46,452 nt of DNA from a virus, in IMG/VR virus record IMGVR_UViG_3300049933_000058, positions 1 to 46,452 of that record; one strand, given 5' to 3'. The translations under genes were made by a program, and so were the position numbers. Below the pieces are notes generated by a model. It was not told the origin of the DNA, did no database searches, and saw only the letters and a list, made by a program, of their open reading frames with translations. Below, piece after piece: positions 128 to 34,408 of this stretch. Position 1 is the stretch's first letter, and each line of letters opens with the position of its first letter.

Positions 128-1264
128 ATGCTGGTCTATATGGTCGTAAGTTACATCAGTAGGAGCCTCCCACTTCAGAACACCCCCGTGGGACTTAGTT
201 ATCTTTTCCGCCAACTGCTTTAGAGACAACTTACCCTCTGTTTTAGTACGTTGCCTCCTAGACAGCTCAAAACCTATCCCCAGACCTGTTAACTCGGTTT
301 TACCCTCTGATAGCCCGTGTGTGCCCTGATGGTAGTACTCAAAACTCACATCATCTATTGTCACAATGAGTTTGTTACCCTTTACGACAGCTTGCGCTGT
401 AGCAGCGTTACCTGTGTCAAGCCCTGTAGACTCTGGAGTAACCTTAGGGGCTACAGCCCCACCGCCGGCTTCCGCTATAAGCGCTGCTGTAGGTGCTCCT
501 TCCCACTTGGCGAAGGCTTTCAACCACCTAGGCATCTGAGAGGGCACAATACCATTAATAACGCGCCTTGAGTTGTAGATGTCCTTTTTACCACCGCCTA
601 AATAGGCAGACATCTTCCTCCCGGTAAAGAGACCATCACGGCACCCTACAGCCATAATACGGGCAGCTATAGCAGGGTCTGCCACATAGTCTGGGTTAGC
701 AATAAGGTCTACATTAAGGCGCTTAGTCCACTTGGCAAAGTTAACCCTCCCCGTCATTTGAGCGAAACCTCTACCCCTAAACTTGTAACCGTCACCTGGC
801 TGGGTGTTACCGATGTCCCTCCTACCTTCATAACGGTTGAAATAGGAGCGACTACCCTCTTCTACCAAGATACGCCCCATGTCTGTCTCATGTTCAGCCA
901 CCGCCAACAGATAGGTGATATGTAACGGGTCTGTCAACCCTGCTGCCAACCCAGCCTTAACAATAGCTAACTGAACTGACTTCTTATCCCGCCCTACGGT
1001 GCCAGGTGGCACACTACCACCACTATCTGGTGTTACACTGCCAGGTTCCATTGGAGGGCTCTCAGGCGGCTCTATAGACTGTATACCACCACTTTTAAAG
1101 GTGTGGTTAATAACCCTTTCAGCTATAAGGTGTCCGGGGTCTGCCACCACCACTCTCACCGCCGAGCCTTGCTTACCCTGTCCAAGTGACACCACTAGCT
1201 CTGTGAGACGGTCACCAACACTCCACTCCTCTAAACCCTCTAGTTGTACTGTTGCTCTCAACAT
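1..1264 (-). CDS. Tail hub / tail-associated lysin, N-terminal part with GH19 muramidase-like domain. Same ORF as 45379..46452 across the circular junction.
   Basis: The minus-strand ORF is open from ATG 1264 to the window start and is in frame, through the 127-bp overlap, with 45379..46449. My translation contains AEHETDMG ... GDGYKFRGRGFAQMTGRVNFAKW, a GH19 chitinase-like / phage lysozyme signature. The whole protein is about 736 aa. Confidence 0.8.
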   Translation of the reverse strand, partial: MLRATVQLEGLEEWSVGDRLTELVVSLGQGKQGSAVRVVVADPGHLIAERVINHTFKSGGIQSIEPPESPPMEPGSVTPDSGGSVPPGTVGRDKKSVQLAIVKAGLAAGLTDPLHITYLLAVAEHETDMGRILVEEGSRSYFNRYEGRRDIGNTQPGDGYKFRGRGFAQMTGRVNFAKWTKRLNVDLIANPDYVADPAIAARIMAVGCRDGLFTGRKMSAYLGGGKKDIYNSRRVINGIVPSQMPRWLKAFAKWEGAPTAALIAEAGGGAVAPKVTPESTGLDTGNAATAQAVVKGNKLIVTIDDVSFEYYHQGTHGLSEGKTELTGLGIGFELSRRQRTKTEGKLSLKQLAEKITKSHGGVLKWEAPTDVTYDHIDQHGLSDYKLLQRLCEQSGYLMRDEGKTIIISTIANLVDTGIVLI

Positions 1265-1268
1265 GTTA

Positions 1269-1493
1269 TCACAAAGTGTATGTGTCCACTAACTGACTAA
1301 GGAAAGGATGTGTTCTCATCTTTTGTAGGAGTGCATCTAGAGTTGGTGCTTGGCAATGCACTTCTGACCCTATGAGCAAGTTATAGGAACATCCCACCCC
1401 ACTTCTAGATATCATTTGGCATCTGTAAACTAAACATGGGTATATATGCCTAGACAGCCTACCCATAGCTTCCAACTCAGGGTCATCTCTCAT
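1269..1493 (-). CDS. Hypothetical small protein upstream of the hub/lysin gene
   Basis: The ORF track gives 1269..1568. I prefer the internal ATG at 1493, which follows AAGGAG (GATAAAGGAGTTGATATG). The stop lies 4 nt before the hub gene start. Confidence 0.5.
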   Translation of the reverse strand: MRDDPELEAMGRLSRHIYPCLVYRCQMISRSGVGCSYNLLIGSEVHCQAPTLDALLQKMRTHPFLSQLVDTYTL

Positions 1494-1528
1494 ATCAACT
1501 CCTTTATCTATACTCAGGGACGCTGCAA

Positions 1529-1610
1529 CCACACTCACACCTAGAGATATCTCCCTTGGTGTTATCACATTATCACCACCCTAAAGATATCTAGTTGTGT
1601 GAGTGTGTTT
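1529..1610. promoter_or_regulatory. Divergent control region with inverted arms flanking TGTTATCACA plus TTATCACC
   Basis: Left arm is CACACTCACAC-CTAGAGATATCT and right arm is AGATATCTAG-TTGTGTGAGTGTG. The GATATC sites are at 1546-1551 and 1586-1591, 40 bp centre to centre. The region lies between minus gene 1493 and plus gene 1650. Confidence 0.6.
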
Positions 1611-1623
1611 AATGAGTTATAAT
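1595..1623 (+). promoter_or_regulatory. Sigma70-type promoter for the 1650 gene
   Basis: TTGTGT (1595-1600), a 17-nt spacer, then TATAAT (1618-1623), 27 nt upstream of ATG 1650. Confidence 0.6.
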
Positions 1624-1649
1624 AGGGAGAGACGAGATGGGTTAAAGGT

Positions 1650-2432
1650 ATGAGCATTAAAACGATACCATTCAGAGACGATGCCAGCTTTTTGGAAGAG
1701 GCCATGGCTAAGGCTAAAGAGTTAGGAACCAACTTAACCCAAGTCATGAGGACTCAACTAAGACAGTGGCTAGGTATGCCTGAGGATACCAGAACTCTAG
1801 ATACTGTAACGGGTGCTGCTGCCGAGGTTATGATAGCAGATGGTACTTGCTATAACTGGTCTGGTAAAAAGCGTATAAACAGTATGCTACCTGTACACGT
1901 TGTAACCCACGGTAAGTTATGGCTGGTAGACCGTACTAAGAACTACTCACACAAGATACTCAGAAGTGTGTGTGTGCTACCTCAGTGCATTATCAGCACT
2001 GTTGGAGAGGCTAGGGGTGACCTTGTACCAAAACTCCTCGACCTTACCTCAGATGACCTTGTAGACCGTGTTGCTAACCTATTACAAGTTGAAGCAATGA
2101 CCTGGTTTCAGGAGATGCACCATCGTCAGCAGAGCTATGTTATTGATGCTGCTCTCAATGGTGACACCCTAGAACAACTCATAGACTACTATGCCCCTAA
2201 ACCTGTTATCACAGAGGTCATAGAACCACAACCAGAGGAGCCACAGGAGACTGTTATCACAACAGACACTAAGAAGCCTGAAGCCAGAGACAAGCAACTA
2301 CGGAAGCGCTACAGCATCAGTGCCGATGAGTGGCACGCTAACCTATCCACCTGGAAGAGAGAGGGTTTAAAGACGGTTGACGGGTTGGTGTGGCGCTTTA
2401 TCCGCTACTCTAATATGTGGTTAGCCAGTTGA
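1650..2432 (+). CDS. Putative ribbon-helix-helix (Arc/CopG-like) DNA-binding regulator with a long C-terminal extension
   Basis: The N-terminus IKTIPFRDDASFLEEAMAKAKELGTNLTQVMRTQLRQWL fits a beta-strand plus two-helix RHH pattern. It is the first gene after the divergent control region. Confidence 0.6.
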   Translation: MSIKTIPFRDDASFLEEAMAKAKELGTNLTQVMRTQLRQWLGMPEDTRTLDTVTGAAAEVMIADGTCYNWSGKKRINSMLPVHVVTHGKLWLVDRTKNYSHKILRSVCVLPQCIISTVGEARGDLVPKLLDLTSDDLVDRVANLLQVEAMTWFQEMHHRQQSYVIDAALNGDTLEQLIDYYAPKPVITEVIEPQPEEPQETVITTDTKKPEARDKQLRKRYSISADEWHANLSTWKREGLKTVDGLVWRFIRYSNMWLAS

Positions 2433-10840: not shown

Positions 10841-11079
10841 ATGTATTGGTCAGAAGGGGCACCCTCGGCTAAGTCGCAGGACGCTTTCCTAACCATTGTA
10901 TCAGCATCAGGCGTACCATAACCGGGGTAGCTAGGGGAACGATAGTAAGCGATGTTTTTCACCGCCATATTGTGTTTATCCCGTTCTGCTTGGGTGAAAG
11001 TACGCTTAGGTCTTACATCCTCCGGTTCTGGGACACTGCTACCCAACGGCGCACCGTTTCTACCTAGACCTCTTGTCAT
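10837..11079 (-). CDS. Hypothetical protein inserted in reverse orientation between gpW and gpJ
   Basis: The internal ATG at 11079 (MTRGLGRNG...) follows AAGGAG. The ORF track gives 10837..11181. Confidence 0.5.
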   Translation of the reverse strand: MTRGLGRNGAPLGSSVPEPEDVRPKRTFTQAERDKHNMAVKNIAYYRSPSYPGYGTPDADTMVRKASCDLAEGAPSDQYI

Positions 11080-11202
11080 AATATCACACTCCTTATAAAC
11101 AACACGGAGAGGCGTTAACCTGCATCCTAAAACTATTATAACACCCTTCTCTAATAGTTGCCATATCCCCATATAACACACTCACACTTTTTGTTAACAC
11201 TT

Positions 11203-13129: not shown

Positions 13130-13152
13130 CGTTGTAGTATTGTGATAACAAG

Positions 13153-13394
13153 AGCTAAACCAGGACTCGAACCCAGTAACCTCATTATAGCTTGGATAGG
13201 GCTATGGCAGAAGTTAGTCACCTGACTATAGCAAAGTTGACACTCCACTCTAAAGTTAGCCACACCACCCTGTAGCTTTCTCTGGAGTATGAGTTGCTTA
13301 GTTCACTCTCAACCGGTTAGGGTGGTACCTAGTATCCTGTGCTTTCAGCGTGTCTTGCCTGTCTTTCCAAGCTGTCAGTGCCATTCCTGAACAC
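13153..13394 (-). ncRNA. Candidate structured RNA C, ending in an acceptor/T-arm minihelix
   Basis: The minus-strand promoter AAGGTGTTATAAT (-10 at 13401-13406) matches loci A and B. The RNA 5' end AGAGTGTTCAGGAATG resembles B (GGAGTGGTCAGGAAAG). The 3' end is AGCTATA-ATGAGGTTA-CTGGG-TTCGAGT-CCTGG-TTTAGCT. Only one spurious-looking ORF overlaps. Confidence 0.45.
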
Positions 13395-13539
13395 TCTTTT
13401 ATTATAACACCTTTTAAAGGTGTTATGGTGACCTTTGGGTAGTTGCTTCAGACGTTCTCCATCCGGTCTCCTTTATTATAGCACTCCTTACAGTCTAGTG
13501 TGTTATAACAATATCACGAAACATAGTTTTAGAAAGGTA

Positions 13540-14186: not shown

Positions 14187-15173
14187 CTACTCTAGTCTTT
14201 GGTGTTCAGAGTCTATCCAGGACAAGGGGTAAGTGGGAGGGTATGAGCCTTTGTCAAGCAGGGTATTAACTAGGTCTATTTCAGGTTGGCGGATAAAACC
14301 GTCTAAGAGCATTGCTGGGAAGTAAACACTCATTTCTTTCCAAACAGCCCTCCTAGCTTCGATATGGATAGCGCCTGGCATAGGGTCGCCGCTTTTTAAG
14401 AACCTTTTGGGTGCGTTTATTCTCACAGCCTCCCTTAGTTTCTCTATTAAACCTCGCACACCTAACGTATACTCTGGCACTATCCCCTTATCTACATTCT
14501 CCTGTATCCGTTTTGCAACTACTACCGGGCAATGGAAACACCCCATTCTTAGACTTCCTGTTTGTGACTCTGCTATCTCATACATATCCATTATGTTATC
14601 ACAACACCCTTGGTATAATATACCATCGATATACATTGTGATATAGTCCCATACATCACAGTTACCCCATTCGCTAATAGGTTCTAAGCCGTTGCTCAGG
14701 TCGGATAAGCCACACTCGCCGTCTCTACAGTCTTTAATACGCTTATCCCTTTTACTAGACTCTCCTAAGTGTACCCCCGTTAAAGCAATACCTGGTATTG
14801 CTTTCATAGGTCTTACTTTAAGGTTATTGGTACACCATCGGTTGCGGTAGGTAGGTACAGGGTAACCTAGCCCAAACTGAGTAACCCAGTAACTACGGGT
14901 GATATCCGGCTTGGTCTGTATAAACTCCACCTTACCTTTACAAGCCTCCTTAACACAGTCTATCAGGTGATATAGCTTATTCACCTCTAGCCCCGTATCT
15001 GAAAACACTACCTTTACATTTAGAGCCTCCCCCCTTAACTCACACCATTTTAGGTAAAGTGCCAATAGCACATGACTATCTTTCCCACCCGAAAAAGCCA
15101 ATAAGTATTCTTTATCCTTGGGTAGAGCATCTAACATGTTATAACTGCGCTCTATTTTTGCTTCTAAGTTCAT
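14187..15173 (-). CDS. PP-loop ATP pyrophosphatase of the PAPS reductase / DndC-like family
   Basis: LLAFSGGKDSHVLL (SGGKDS PP-loop), NRWCTNNLKVRPM (PAPS reductase/DndC-like), and Cys motifs CRDGEC and CFHC. Confidence 0.7.
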   Translation of the reverse strand: MNLEAKIERSYNMLDALPKDKEYLLAFSGGKDSHVLLALYLKWCELRGEALNVKVVFSDTGLEVNKLYHLIDCVKEACKGKVEFIQTKPDITRSYWVTQFGLGYPVPTYRNRWCTNNLKVRPMKAIPGIALTGVHLGESSKRDKRIKDCRDGECGLSDLSNGLEPISEWGNCDVWDYITMYIDGILYQGCCDNIMDMYEIAESQTGSLRMGCFHCPVVVAKRIQENVDKGIVPEYTLGVRGLIEKLREAVRINAPKRFLKSGDPMPGAIHIEARRAVWKEMSVYFPAMLLDGFIRQPEIDLVNTLLDKGSYPPTYPLSWIDSEHQRLE

Positions 15174-15207
15174 TACCACTGTCCCACTACAACATCCTTA
15201 TTATACC

Positions 15208-24287: not shown

Positions 24288-24514
24288 TAAAACATTACCT
24301 ATTAACCCAACCTCTTGTTACAGCAGAGTTACTCGCCGCGTCCAATGCCGTAGAACTGCCATTCAGGCTTGTTACAGGTGATGACTTCCTAGGAAGTGAT
24401 AAAGTCCTATACAGTTAAAACCTGCTTAGTCACCTCTTTCAACGGAGAGACCGTTATTGTCACGTACCTCCAAACAGTCAAATAACTCTGTTATCACAAT
24501 GACACAGTAGTACT

Positions 24515-24539
24515 AACCCACCCTTGAGGGTGGGTTTTT
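24515..24539 (+). terminator. Intrinsic terminator
   Basis: AACCCACCC-TTGA-GGGTGGGTT followed by TTTTT. Confidence 0.8.
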
Positions 24540-24547
24540 AATAGGGG

Positions 24548-24576
24548 TTGCAACTTTTGGAGAAAGGTGTTATATT
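24548..24576 (+). promoter_or_regulatory. Promoter of RNA A
   Basis: TTGCAA, a 17-nt spacer, then TGtTATATT. Its AAGGTGTTATAnT context is shared with loci B and C. Confidence 0.7.
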
Positions 24577-24582
24577 AGAGAA

Positions 24583-24899
24583 GTGGTGAGAGAGCCACAG
24601 TGGTGTGATAGGTCAGAGTTTGCGAACACCCTTCGGGGTTACTAACCACTCAGGCTATGCTGCTAAGGCTCTCAAACCGTAAACCAAACCTGGCTTCTAA
24701 CTGGTGGGGACATCAGACTGAGGCCAACAACGACACTACCAAGTCTCTAACAAGGTAACAAACAGCACACAGCTTCAATGGAGACAAGTCTCCTGCCTGA
24801 TATGAAGTGTTAGTGGCACTCATAGTAGCCCTAAAGTCACCCGTCCTGATGAGTCAGGCCAAAGGGATAGGTGATAGAGGGGCACCGCTATGGGTTAAC
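24583..24899 (+). ncRNA. Candidate structured RNA A (about 320 nt), fused at its 3' end to tRNA-Ile
   Basis: No credible ORF. The first ~90 nt align with RNA B. A C(UUCG)G hairpin lies at 24628-24639. The RNA ends at the mature 5' end of the tRNA. Ends are approximate. Confidence 0.6.
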
Positions 24900-24972
24900 G
24901 GTACTATGGCTCAATGGTTAGAGCAGCTTCCTTATAAGAGGTTGGTTATGGGTTCGAGTCCCATTAGTACCA
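24900..24972 (+). tRNA. tRNA-Ile, anticodon UAU (reads AUA)
   Basis: Hand fold: GGTACTA-TG-GCTC-AATGGTTA-GAGC-A-GCTTC-CTTATAA-GAGGT-TGGTT-ATGGG-TTCGAGT-CCCAT-TAGTACC-A. Total 73 nt, with a 7-bp acceptor stem and a canonical T loop. Confidence 0.85.
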
Positions 24973-25001
24973 CTCTGTTATCACAATACTACGACCACCA
25001 T

Positions 25002-25023
25002 CCCACTATAACAAGTGGGTTTT
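25002..25023 (+). terminator. Hairpin plus T-run after the tRNA
   Basis: CCCACT-ATAACA-AGTGGG followed by TTTT. Confidence 0.5.
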
Positions 25024-25028
25024 ACTGT

Positions 25029-25598: not shown

Positions 25599-25793
25599 TT
25601 AGTGAGGTGGTAGTGTTGGCAGGTCTTTGAGCATTAGTTTACCAACCAACTCAGTGTATAGGGTGACCGTGATGAGGTGTTGCTCAAACAGTTCTATTAA
25701 CACTGCTTTAGTCTGGTCTGGTGACATATCCCTGACCATCAGTTTAAAAGACTCTAGAGTTAGTTGCTTCTCTAGCGGTAACTCGGTAGTCAT
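25599..25793 (-). CDS. nblA: NblA-like phycobilisome degradation protein
   Basis: ELPLEKQLTLESFKLMVRDMSPDQTKAVLIELFEQHLITVTLYTELV aligns with the NblA pattern (Anabaena NblA as I recall it: ELSLEQQFSIRSFATQVQNMSHDQAKDFLVKLYEQMVVREATYQELL). Length 64 aa. Confidence 0.75.
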   Translation of the reverse strand: MTTELPLEKQLTLESFKLMVRDMSPDQTKAVLIELFEQHLITVTLYTELVGKLMLKDLPTLPPH

Positions 25794-33449: not shown

Positions 33450-33527
33450 TCACACACCTCCTGTTAACTACCTTGAGACTGTGTAGGCGTTATCACAATA
33501 CCACGCTAAAGTTGGTTTACCAACAGG

Positions 33528-33557
33528 GTTGTCACTTCTGGGAAAGGGTGTTATACT
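33528..33557 (+). promoter_or_regulatory. Promoter of RNA B
   Basis: TTGTCA, an 18-nt spacer, then TGtTATACT, in the same AAGGGTGTTATAnT context as loci A and C. Confidence 0.65.
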
Positions 33558-33563
33558 AAAGGA

Positions 33564-34068
33564 GTGGTCAGGAAAGAGCGGTGTGAAAGGTCAAGGTTTC
33601 TGAACCCTCCTCGGAGTTACTAAGCACCTAGGCAATGCTACTCAGACCGGGCTACAACAACATAAAGTAGGAAGGTGACCCGAACGTTTCACCAGTGTAG
33701 CGTCACTTAAACCGCCAAAGGAAGCTAGTTGGTAGGCTAGCAACGTTACTACACTGTGCAGTAGCTATTGAGAACCATTCGGCGGCAGTGTTCCGGTAAC
33801 ATAGTCAGAAGGAGTTGTGAGCGGTACTCACATCTGCACCCTCAGGTTAACGGGCAACAAGTCAGTGTGGTAGCTGACAGGGCTAACGCCCTATACACTG
33901 GGAAAGACTAGGCTATCGTCTACAAACCTGAACACTCGGTTACAGCCTACGGGCTAGACACTATGGACTGAGTTATTAAGGGCTGTAGCACTCTATAACC
34001 GCCTTATCCGACCGTGGTAGTGTCCGGAACGATAGGGAGGGTTAGGAGGGCTATGGCTGTAGGCTAAT
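33564..34068 (+). ncRNA. Candidate large structured RNA B (about 500 nt)
   Basis: No ORF of 60 aa or more lies anywhere in 33450-34146. It has its own promoter, its 5' ~90 nt align with RNA A, and it ends at a tRNA-like element. Ends are approximate. Confidence 0.6.
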
Positions 34069-34125
34069 GGCAGTTCTGGCGACAGGACGTTGTAAGACCT
34101 GGTAGGTTCGACTCCTACAACTGCC
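34069..34125 (+). ncRNA. Truncated tRNA-like element lacking a D arm
   Basis: GGCAGTT ... GTAGG-TTCGACT-CCTAC-AACTGCC gives a perfect 7-bp acceptor stem and T arm. The 26 nt between them can form only one imperfect arm (AGGAC-GTTGTAA-GACCT). Confidence 0.6.
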
Positions 34126-34146
34126 TTTGTCAATAAGGAGTCACTC

Positions 34147-34356
34147 ATGCCCATTTATAAGGACGGTTATAGCACCTACTCAATAGAGGGTTTGGAAGTA
34201 AAAACTAGTCCGCGTAGTCAAACCATAACTATAGAAGGTGTAACGAGGGAGGTAGCGCGGTATGGTGAGTTATGCCAATACCTTTACCTTGTTGAGAACA
34301 CTGCCGAATATAAGTCTAAAGACTGGAGGAATGATATTGAGAGGTTTTTAAACTAA
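34147..34356 (+). CDS. Hypothetical protein
   Basis: 69 aa. AAGGAG lies 6 nt before the ATG, and a terminator follows the gene. Confidence 0.65.
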   Translation: MPIYKDGYSTYSIEGLEVKTSPRSQTITIEGVTREVARYGELCQYLYLVENTAEYKSKDWRNDIERFLN

Positions 34357-34382
34357 AGCCTAAAACCTAAACATTACATCTC

Positions 34383-34408
34383 ACCACCGTTCATACCGGT
34401 GGTTTTCT
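34383..34408 (+). terminator. Intrinsic terminator
   Basis: ACCACCG-TTCATAC-CGGTGGT followed by TTTT. Confidence 0.7.

Follow-up and report, generated by a model that had tools for sequence, protein, structure and literature searches.

Locus A raises the question why a phage should place several hundred nucleotides of DNA without a credible open reading frame between a promoter and a tRNA gene, and whether this stretch is a spacer, a regulatory leader or an RNA gene in its own right. The window, i.e., the whole stretch of DNA that was analyzed, is a 46.5-kb contig (46,452 nt) of a contractile-tailed phage with genes for a terminase, portal, sheath, tape measure, SU10-type capsid protein and family A DNA polymerase. 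Its TerL is about 26-33% identical to the TerL of Leptolyngbya, Microcystis, Nostoc and Anabaena phages, and an NblA gene adjoins locus A; for these two reasons the phage is a cyanophage, with filamentous cyanobacteria of soil or freshwater as candidate hosts. In JGI the contig is listed as 3300053761 Ga0500145_0000071. Our preferred reading, to which we assign a probability of roughly 60%, is that locus A forms one cyanophage unit of a host-type promoter, a structured leader and tRNA-Ile(UAU), from which a tRNA-capped ncRNA is released by RNase P.

The sequence features given for locus A in the preliminary description were all confirmed. Locus A is composed of a sigma-70-type promoter, an ORF-free leader of 317 nt, tRNA-Ile(UAU), a TGTTATCACAA box and a terminator, in this order. 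Just before the promoter a hairpin with a T-run (ACCCACCC-TTGA-GGGTGGGT-TTTTT; 24518..24545, +) closes the upstream unit; it was read directly from the sequence, is not listed by the consensus terminator scan and gave weak terminator-like RNAI matches on both strands in the Rfam search. The promoter TTGCAA-17-TGtTATATT of the preliminary description is present at 24548..24576 (+), with the -35 element TTGCAA at 24548-24553, a 17-nt spacer and the extended -10 element TGtTATATT, of which the -10 hexamer is at 24571-24576. It scores 9/12 in the consensus scan and carries the extended TG. We infer that transcription starts near 24583. The promoter box TTG-N15-GGTGTTATA is found again at locus B, which together with a locus C will be described below, and with one mismatch at 11163-11137 on the minus strand.

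The leader (24583-24899, +) contains ORFs of 20-36 aa only, in agreement with the roughly 320 nt without a credible ORF that had been described. It runs into a genuine tRNA-Ile at 24900..24973 (+), which starts at the position claimed before and is called by ARAGORN as well as by Rfam (RF00005, 68.5 bits vs a cut-off of 29). This tRNA has the anticodon UAU, reads AUA, has no encoded CCA and is the sole tRNA in the window. As ATA makes up 46% of the Ile codons in this AUA-rich phage, tRNA-Ile(UAU) is needed. The TGTTATCACAA box lies directly 3' of the tRNA (24976..24986, +) and also comes after the tRNA or tRNA-like end of locus C and of the relatives L010 and L017. The A unit ends with an intrinsic-terminator-like hairpin, CCCACT-ATAACA-AGTGGG followed by TTTT, detected by the terminator scan at 25002..25027 (+). 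Leader and tRNA are quite probably co-transcribed.

Relatives of the phage were recovered by protein look-ups of genes neighboring the loci and not by DNA pattern scans; no DNA near-identical to the window was found among the GenBank phages (megablast, 16 kb). L001, a Logan contig of 48.5 kb whose capsid protein is 87% identical to that of the window, has orthologues of both A and B. B is also present in the JGI metagenome contigs L019, L020 and L021, whose samples we take to be soil or rhizosphere, and in a divergent form with a different 5' end in L016. In L018 a B-like RNA, a tRNA-like element and a genuine tRNA-Ile(UAU) (68.2 bits in Rfam) follow each other in tandem. L017 has an A/B-type 5' module joined to a C-type core, located at the position of B, and also the 247-aa gene that in the window comes after C. 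L013 and the close relatives L002 and L009 are without locus A, and its absence from the latter two indicates that locus A is dispensable. A GGTTCGAGTCC match in L013 was rejected since it lies in apparently coding DNA.

The first part of the leader is shared with locus B. The strings quoted for A and B in the preliminary description were located at 24583-24661 and 33564-33640, respectively, and their similarity is significant against shuffled controls, with a local alignment score of 91 compared to 19.8 +/- 2.3 (maximum 29) in 300 shuffles. In blastn, 24545-24667 and 33526-33645 are 74% identical (E = 1e-16), and therefore the similarity spans the promoter and about 85-95 transcribed nt. The proposed shared 5' domain is confirmed, but the similarity begins in the promoter and not at the 5' end of the RNA.

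The transcribed part of the shared region forms a portable 5' module of about 97 nt, a three-helix stem-loop at 24583..24679 (+) in A and at 33561..33660 (+) in B. It has conserved internal loops, GUUUnnGAA and GUUACUAA, which are its most conserved positions, and is capped by the hairpin ACCC-UUCG-GGGU. This hairpin in A and the compensatory change from C-G to U-A in B are exactly as first reported. A covariance model (CM R1) was built from four A/B sequences. It matched seven distinct sequences on five phage contigs with E values of 1e-9 to 1e-34: A (103.6 bits), B (107.8 bits), both L001 copies, L017 (53 bits), L019-21 (43 bits) and L018 (36.5 bits). No further credible match was found in the 172 kb searched. 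Across the seven sequences 9/19 pairs are compensatory and 95.5% of the cells are paired, compared to 34-46% in controls in which the partners were slid by 1-3 columns, in an alignment that was fitted to the CM itself. The module of A has an MFE z of -3.0 and is 72% identical between the window and L001.

Behind the 5' module, the A leader consists of a variable middle segment (24680-24759, 53% identity to L001) and an A-specific 3' domain (24760..24899, +), which has two hairpins, the first at about 24795-24817 and the second, long and irregular, at 24818-24895, and reaches up to the 5' end of the tRNA. The middle segment contains the hairpin GGCUUC..CUGGUG-GGGA-CAUCAG..GAGGCC (24692..24725, +), in which two compensatory changes, C-G/U-A and G-C/A-U, distinguish the window from L001. 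The 3' domain is 86.5% identical to that of L001, contains substitution-free blocks of about 35-65 nt and is more conserved than the tRNA (77%; the L001 orthologue scores 62.3 bits in Rfam) or ORF149, the 149-aa gene after locus A (78%). The promoter is 86.5% identical and the upstream intergenic DNA 46%. All substitutions at paired positions of the 3' domain keep the pairing, and its MFE z is -3.1.

When the leaders of the window and L001 were folded together with RNAalifold, 80 pairs were predicted, of which 100% are paired in both sequences, 9/80 are compensatory and none is broken. Slid controls gave 0-1 compensatory pairs and about 40% pairing. Each of the two leaders also folds independently to the same middle and 3' hairpins; the MFE z of the L001 A leader is -1.3, which is not significantly better than shuffles. 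This evidence comes from two sequences, which are few, and from a program that favors structures with covariation; the covariation is therefore suggestive, and not proof, that the A-specific part of the leader is under selection and structured. A pairing of the 5' end of A with the 3' end of the tRNA was considered and rejected because it is not conserved in L001. Decayed tRNA arrays inside the leaders were rejected as well, as no further tRNA-like matches appeared at E values up to 10.

Locus B starts with the promoter TTGTCA-17-TGtTATACT (33529..33557, +; 10/12 in the consensus scan), which is paralogous to the A promoter, and its RNA is about 565 nt long. Alignments of five sequences divide the B-specific core (33661..34068, +) into a variable middle and a conserved 3' core with the motifs CAAACCUGAA, GGGCUGUAGC and GCUAUGGCUG. 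The strings CAAACCUGAA and GGGCUGUAGC are invariant in five divergent B copies, and 21/60 predicted pairs of the 3' core are compensatory (RNAalifold, five sequences). The core is followed by a tRNA-like element (34069..34125, +) whose acceptor GGCAGUU/AACUGCC has 7 bp, whose central hairpin has a loop of 7 nt and whose T arm GUAGG-UUCGACU-CCUAC has a stem of 5 bp; a D arm is lacking. The element is not recognized as a tRNA, since ARAGORN made no call and Rfam returned just the tRNA-Sec model with 19 bits (E = 0.74). The B-type end of L001 is a near-cloverleaf with G3:U70, called tRNA-Ile(GAU) by ARAGORN and not called by Rfam; the remaining copies have not kept the G3:U70 pair. In L019 and L020 the B unit comprises promoter, RNA, tRNA-like element and terminator without any ORF. 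As just a terminator lies downstream, B is a stand-alone RNA gene in these phages. In the window, a 69-aa ORF is inserted after B.

At locus C (13150..13415, -) a promoter box and a C-type core are found, and TGTTATCACAA comes after a 3' end that looks like a decayed tRNA-Ile. The locus corresponds to the C-type RNA of L017 minus about 240 nt, including the 5' module, which were removed directly after the promoter. The module is thus portable and optional, being absent from C in the window and present in the C-type RNA of L017. The tail of C aligns to the 3' part of tRNA-Ile with a score of 31 compared to 13.1 +/- 2.2 in shuffles, and neither Rfam nor ARAGORN detects a tRNA there. Of a tRNA, B and C retain just the acceptor and the T arm at their ends. 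The window contains exactly three GGTTCRANTCC T-arm motifs (0.07 expected), one at the 3' end of each of the three loci. Of the tRNA-type 3' ends suggested to be shared, that of A is the only true tRNA. The geometry of an RNase P substrate, i.e., a 7-bp acceptor and a 5-bp T stem with T loop, is predicted for the A tRNA and for the ends of B, L019 and L001; it is not cleanly predicted for the tRNA-like ends of C, L016 and L018. An origin of the tRNA-like ends as attP (integration-site) fragments was rejected, as B has both acceptor strands and no integrase was found among the window ORFs of at least 180 aa or the ten proteins scanned with Pfam.

A B profile (nhmmer) matched A over the 5' module only, and the cores of A and B are therefore not detectably related. 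Hints of homology past the module (GCACUC..AUA, GCUAUGG) were rejected since A is not matched by the B profile in that region. The paralogy of A and B that had been proposed accordingly applies to the 5' module, with no detectable homology beyond it. The MFE z values of B (-0.5) and C (+0.2) are not significantly better than shuffles, so that thermodynamics alone does not identify these two RNAs. The arrangements in the different contigs show that modules are swapped between phages. Taken as a whole, the view that these loci belong to a paralogous RNA family and are not junk spacers is borne out by the significant A/B similarity, the CM matches in seven sequences, the 9/19 compensatory pairs, the conserved and covarying cores of A and B and the location of the three T-arm motifs, and we are nearly certain that this is a real, selected and structured RNA family.

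The main rival explanation is that the leader acts purely in cis, its 5' module or perhaps its whole length serving just to control the downstream tRNA or gene, and is degraded after RNase P cleavage, without any function in trans. It could then be a put/nut-like antitermination element that modifies RNAP, a 5' stabilizer or a chaperone for folding or processing of the pre-tRNA. The put sites of HK022 and the nut sites of lambda are paralogous structured RNA elements directly downstream of several promoters of one phage. The 5' module is likewise promoter-proximal: the A/B similarity starts in the promoter, and the module occupies the extreme 5' end of several units, like putL/putR and nutL/nutR. 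Its portable and optional nature and the terminators located after both A and B also fit this explanation. However, put consists of two hairpins on long operons, whereas here one three-helix stem-loop heads short, terminator-ended transcription units, which leave little for antitermination to act on. Neither a terminator nor an ORF start lies directly behind the module, which argues against the expression platform of an attenuator or riboswitch. In the terminator scan no plus-strand terminator was found within 24583-24899 or 33561-34068, no ORF or RBS follows the 5' module, and Rfam gave no riboswitch match. Moreover, the 3' domain of A is more conserved than the tRNA that it would serve, in L019 there is nothing after B that it could regulate, and the cores of B and C persist where the tRNA has decayed. 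Both the stand-alone B gene and the strong conservation of the A core relative to its tRNA weaken the case for a purely cis-acting leader, which we consider unlikely.

Alternatively, the conserved entity could be an element at the DNA level (operators, replication or packaging signals), or the similarity could result from a recent duplication in which the leader is junk carried along with the promoter. The promoter and the flanking TGTTATCACAA boxes are clearly DNA motifs, and the similarity between A and B includes the promoter. However, the compensatory changes in the 5' module, the A core and the B core are signatures at the RNA level. The intergenic region upstream is down to 46% identity while the 3' domain of the leader is still at 86.5%, and the module is present in phages whose neighboring gp10-like protein is just 70-86% identical. 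We therefore regard a DNA-level explanation as very improbable.

A and B could also be divergent members of GOLLD or ROOL or another known RNA that had been missed, such as tmRNA, RNase P RNA, Y RNA or a group I intron. GOLLD and ROOL are large, elaborately folded phage RNAs near or linked to tRNAs, and in GOLLD one half is conserved and the other half variable (PMC12286853, PMC5737381). The context is similar, since the present RNAs are encoded by a phage and linked to tRNAs, A being fused to tRNA-Ile and B being a 565-nt RNA whose 3' core has 21 covarying pairs; this is a likeness of context to GOLLD and ROOL (RF01998, RF03087) and does not establish membership. However, a cmscan with all 4227 families of Rfam 15, using permissive filters and E values up to 5-10, returned tRNA only for A, B, C and the homologues in L016-L019, with no GOLLD or ROOL match at E values up to 10 or 5. 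By sequence and structure these RNAs are thus not GOLLD, ROOL, tmRNA, RNase P RNA, Y RNA, a ribozyme or a riboswitch. In addition, A is far shorter (317 nt), and the present family is modular with a common 5' module and swappable cores, always carries a tRNA or tRNA-like unit at the 3' end and occurs in cyanophages from soil and freshwater metagenomes. A further mark of GOLLD and ROOL is a homo-oligomeric RNA-only nanocage.

The other known classes fare no better. Like tmRNA, the present RNAs join a tRNA-like domain to a large structured RNA, and the G3:U70 at the B-type end of L001 is the alanine identity pair. The acceptor is however formed locally and not by the 5' and 3' ends of the RNA, there is no tag reading frame, and neither ARAGORN nor Rfam found a tmRNA. 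Bacterial and phage Y RNAs of the YrlA type are also ncRNAs with a tRNA-like module, and one such module with a 7-bp acceptor is a substrate of RNase P and receives CCA (PMC4201824). In YrlA this unit is internal, whereas it is terminal in the present family; Rfam gave no YrlA match, and Pfam scans of ten neighboring proteins revealed nothing RNA-related and no TROVE (Ro60) domain. A hammerhead was rejected, as the CUGAUGA at 24847 belongs to a hairpin and Rfam gave no match, and RNase P RNA, an idea that came from GGAAAG/GUGAAAGG strings, was rejected for the same lack of an Rfam match. Membership of a known class is therefore considered highly improbable.

Finally, a small protein encoded by the leader can practically be dismissed: an ATG at GGCTATGCT opens an ORF of 33 aa in the window and of 48 aa in L001, but an indel shifts the frame in which each phage reads the conserved block, no ORF is conserved between them, no RBS is present, the same ATG opens 11 codons in B, and there is no codon periodicity relative to L001, the leader mismatches being flat over the codon positions (28/19/19) without the third-position bias of ORF149 (19/14/62).

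The RNA family is very narrow and was observed in a handful of metagenomic contigs. Among the GenBank phages, blastn of A and B gave tRNA matches only. Pattern scans of IMG/VR with the 5' module, the A-core block and the B core gave no match, and two matches in the scan of the JGI metagenomes (L004, L005) were rejected as chance because their flanks are without similarity. In the GTDB genomes the 5' module was not found. The B-core pattern had 18 matches there, none of which was confirmed by the B profile, and about the same number is expected by chance according to our own estimate. Neither a tRNA nor a credible 5' module was found in L006-L008, which are distant capsid relatives from IMG/VR, in L014 or in the Leptolyngbya phage Lbo402-yong5.

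Members of this family are built from a promoter, an optional and portable 5' stem-loop, a structured core (about 220 nt in A, 400-500 nt in B and 200 nt in C), of which there are three or more unrelated types, and a tRNA or tRNA-like 3' module. According to our preferred reading, in locus A the strong host-type promoter would drive a single precursor of folded leader, tRNA-Ile(UAU) and terminator. Host RNase P would cut this precursor at 24899/24900, giving rise to an AUA-decoding tRNA and a structured RNA with a precise 3' end; we regard such a release of the leader as probable. The 5' module may serve as an autonomous cap-like structure at the 5' end, either for stability or as a binding element for a protein or RNAP.

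In B and C the tRNA-shaped remnant would have been retained for processing or stability after decoding was lost. In MALAT1 and MEN-beta with mascRNA, as well as in mitochondrial tRNA punctuation, a 3' tRNA or tRNA-like fold is the RNase P signal that defines the 3' end of the upstream RNA. The tRNA-like ends of B and C may play a comparable role, a likeness that draws on the predicted 7-bp acceptor and 5-bp T stem. These systems differ from the present one in being eukaryotic or organellar, and in A the tRNA itself is the needed product.

The released cores could act in trans, as proposed for GOLLD, ROOL and the RNAC and RNAD of T4. That the RNA, once released, has its own function in trans is conceivable, and we hold this tentatively, at somewhat less than even odds. 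RNAC and RNAD (species 1 and 2 RNAs) are small stable RNAs from the tRNA region of phage T4 (PMC3014915). Compared to the present RNAs they are unrelated in sequence, much smaller and without a shared 5' module. They may resemble the present RNAs in their processing.

A more far-reaching version of our reading is that A, B and C form a new class among the ornate phage RNAs, modular in build and tRNA-capped, in which the 5' stem-loop and the tRNA-shaped 3' handle recruit the tRNA machinery of the host and the cores have an RNA-only function. This machinery may comprise RNase P and the CCA-adding enzyme and, in view of the G3:U70 in the B copy of L001, perhaps also an aminoacyl-tRNA synthetase. 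The cores may assemble like the GOLLD/ROOL cages, or may manipulate translation or RNA decay of the host during infection. We regard this version as rather speculative and doubtful.

The RNA family described here is previously undescribed and narrowly distributed in one cyanophage clade, and it adds to the known tRNA-linked phage ncRNAs an independent, non-homologous cyanophage example of large structured RNAs. Annotation pipelines would list just 'tRNA-Ile' at this place and would miss about 1.2 kb of conserved RNA genes. To our knowledge, no function is known for GOLLD, ROOL or T4 RNAC/D, which is a long-standing puzzle. The modular build of the present family, with a shared 5' module, three interchangeable cores and an intact or decayed 3' tRNA, allows the roles of its parts to be tested one by one. 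Nature already offers something like a deletion series: the 5' module is present or missing in C, a downstream gene is present or missing after B, and the tRNA occurs in intact, decayed or duplicated form. The retention of tRNA-shaped ends after decoding was lost points to processing or stability as the reason why phage ncRNAs cluster with tRNAs.

Locus C (13150-13415, minus strand) has a third type of core, the locus-specific part of these RNAs, and a decayed tRNA-Ile-like end. In the window it lacks the 5' module, the portable stem-loop common to the RNAs of loci A and B, whereas its orthologue in the related metagenomic phage contig L017 (2005-2520, minus strand) carries one. This C-type RNA of L017 occupies the position that is held by B in the window, and therefore entire RNA cassettes have been swapped between positions.

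The locus B region (33529-34403) encodes a structured RNA of about 565 nt, whose 3' end is a tRNA-like element without a D-arm. In the window the RNA is followed by an RBS and a 69-aa ORF (34147-34356) and then by a terminator (34383-34403). This ORF is missing in the relatives L019 and L020, where the B RNA gene runs straight into the terminator. In another relative, L018, a single unit (1232-1850, minus strand) contains a B-like RNA, followed by its tRNA-like element and then by a genuine tRNA-Ile(UAU); because these stand there in tandem, the tRNA-like element is not merely a decayed copy of the adjoining tRNA. The B-type 3' element of L001 (2709-2781, minus strand), a contig with orthologues of both A and B and the nearest relative, is a near-cloverleaf with the acceptor stem GGGUGAG/CUCAUCC. 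This stem contains G3:U70, the alanine identity pair that is also used by tmRNA. The element was called as tRNA-Ile(GAU) by ARAGORN, and no tRNA call was obtained for it from Rfam.

The promoter type of loci A, B and C was found a fourth time at 11137-11163 (minus strand, GGGTGTTATAAT), upstream of an ordinary protein-coding gene with its start near 11078. Since this copy serves a protein-coding gene, the promoter type is not restricted to the RNA loci. The -10 region of the A, B and C promoters, GGTGTTATA, is similar to a half-site of the near-palindromic 11-mer TGTTAT[C/A]ACAA, the 10-nt core of which (GTTAT[C/A]ACAA) occurs in 63 exact copies in the whole window. Allowing up to one mismatch to GTTATCACAA, 82 copies were counted over the same length, compared to about 4 expected. 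The 11-mer lies on both strands, within and between genes (e.g., at 24490, 24977, 33489, 34412 and, on the minus strand, 13149), and is frequently placed directly behind terminators and tRNA or tRNA-like ends, likewise in the relatives L010, L017 and L019. The motif may be bound by a regulator of the phage, act as a phage-specific promoter or mark sites for modification.

The JGI record and the window both comprise 46452 bp, but the numbering of the record places the 149-aa gene downstream of locus A about 3.2 kb later than that of the window. It thus seems that the window is the JGI contig in rotated form, as would be consistent with a complete genome assembled as a circle. Precomputed Pfam annotation of this identical contig assigns a 64-aa protein (25599-25793, minus strand) to PF04485 as a homologue of NblA, the phycobilisome degradation protein. 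Its gene, which is separated from locus A by 0.6 kb, identifies the phage as a cyanophage.

Among 19 long ORFs of the window, ATA accounts for 46% of the isoleucine codons (22.6 per 1000), and this high usage is the reason for the presence of tRNA-Ile(UAU) in the phage, a tRNA that needs no lysidine modification to read AUA. A 330-aa PAPS-reductase/PP-loop ATPase-like protein is encoded at 14187-15179 (minus strand; PF01507 at 50 bits, with a weak match to PF01171, the TilS-type PP-loop). Such phage proteins are frequently part of DNA or tRNA modification pathways, and one may speculate that this one is connected with the abundant palindromic motif or with AUA decoding.
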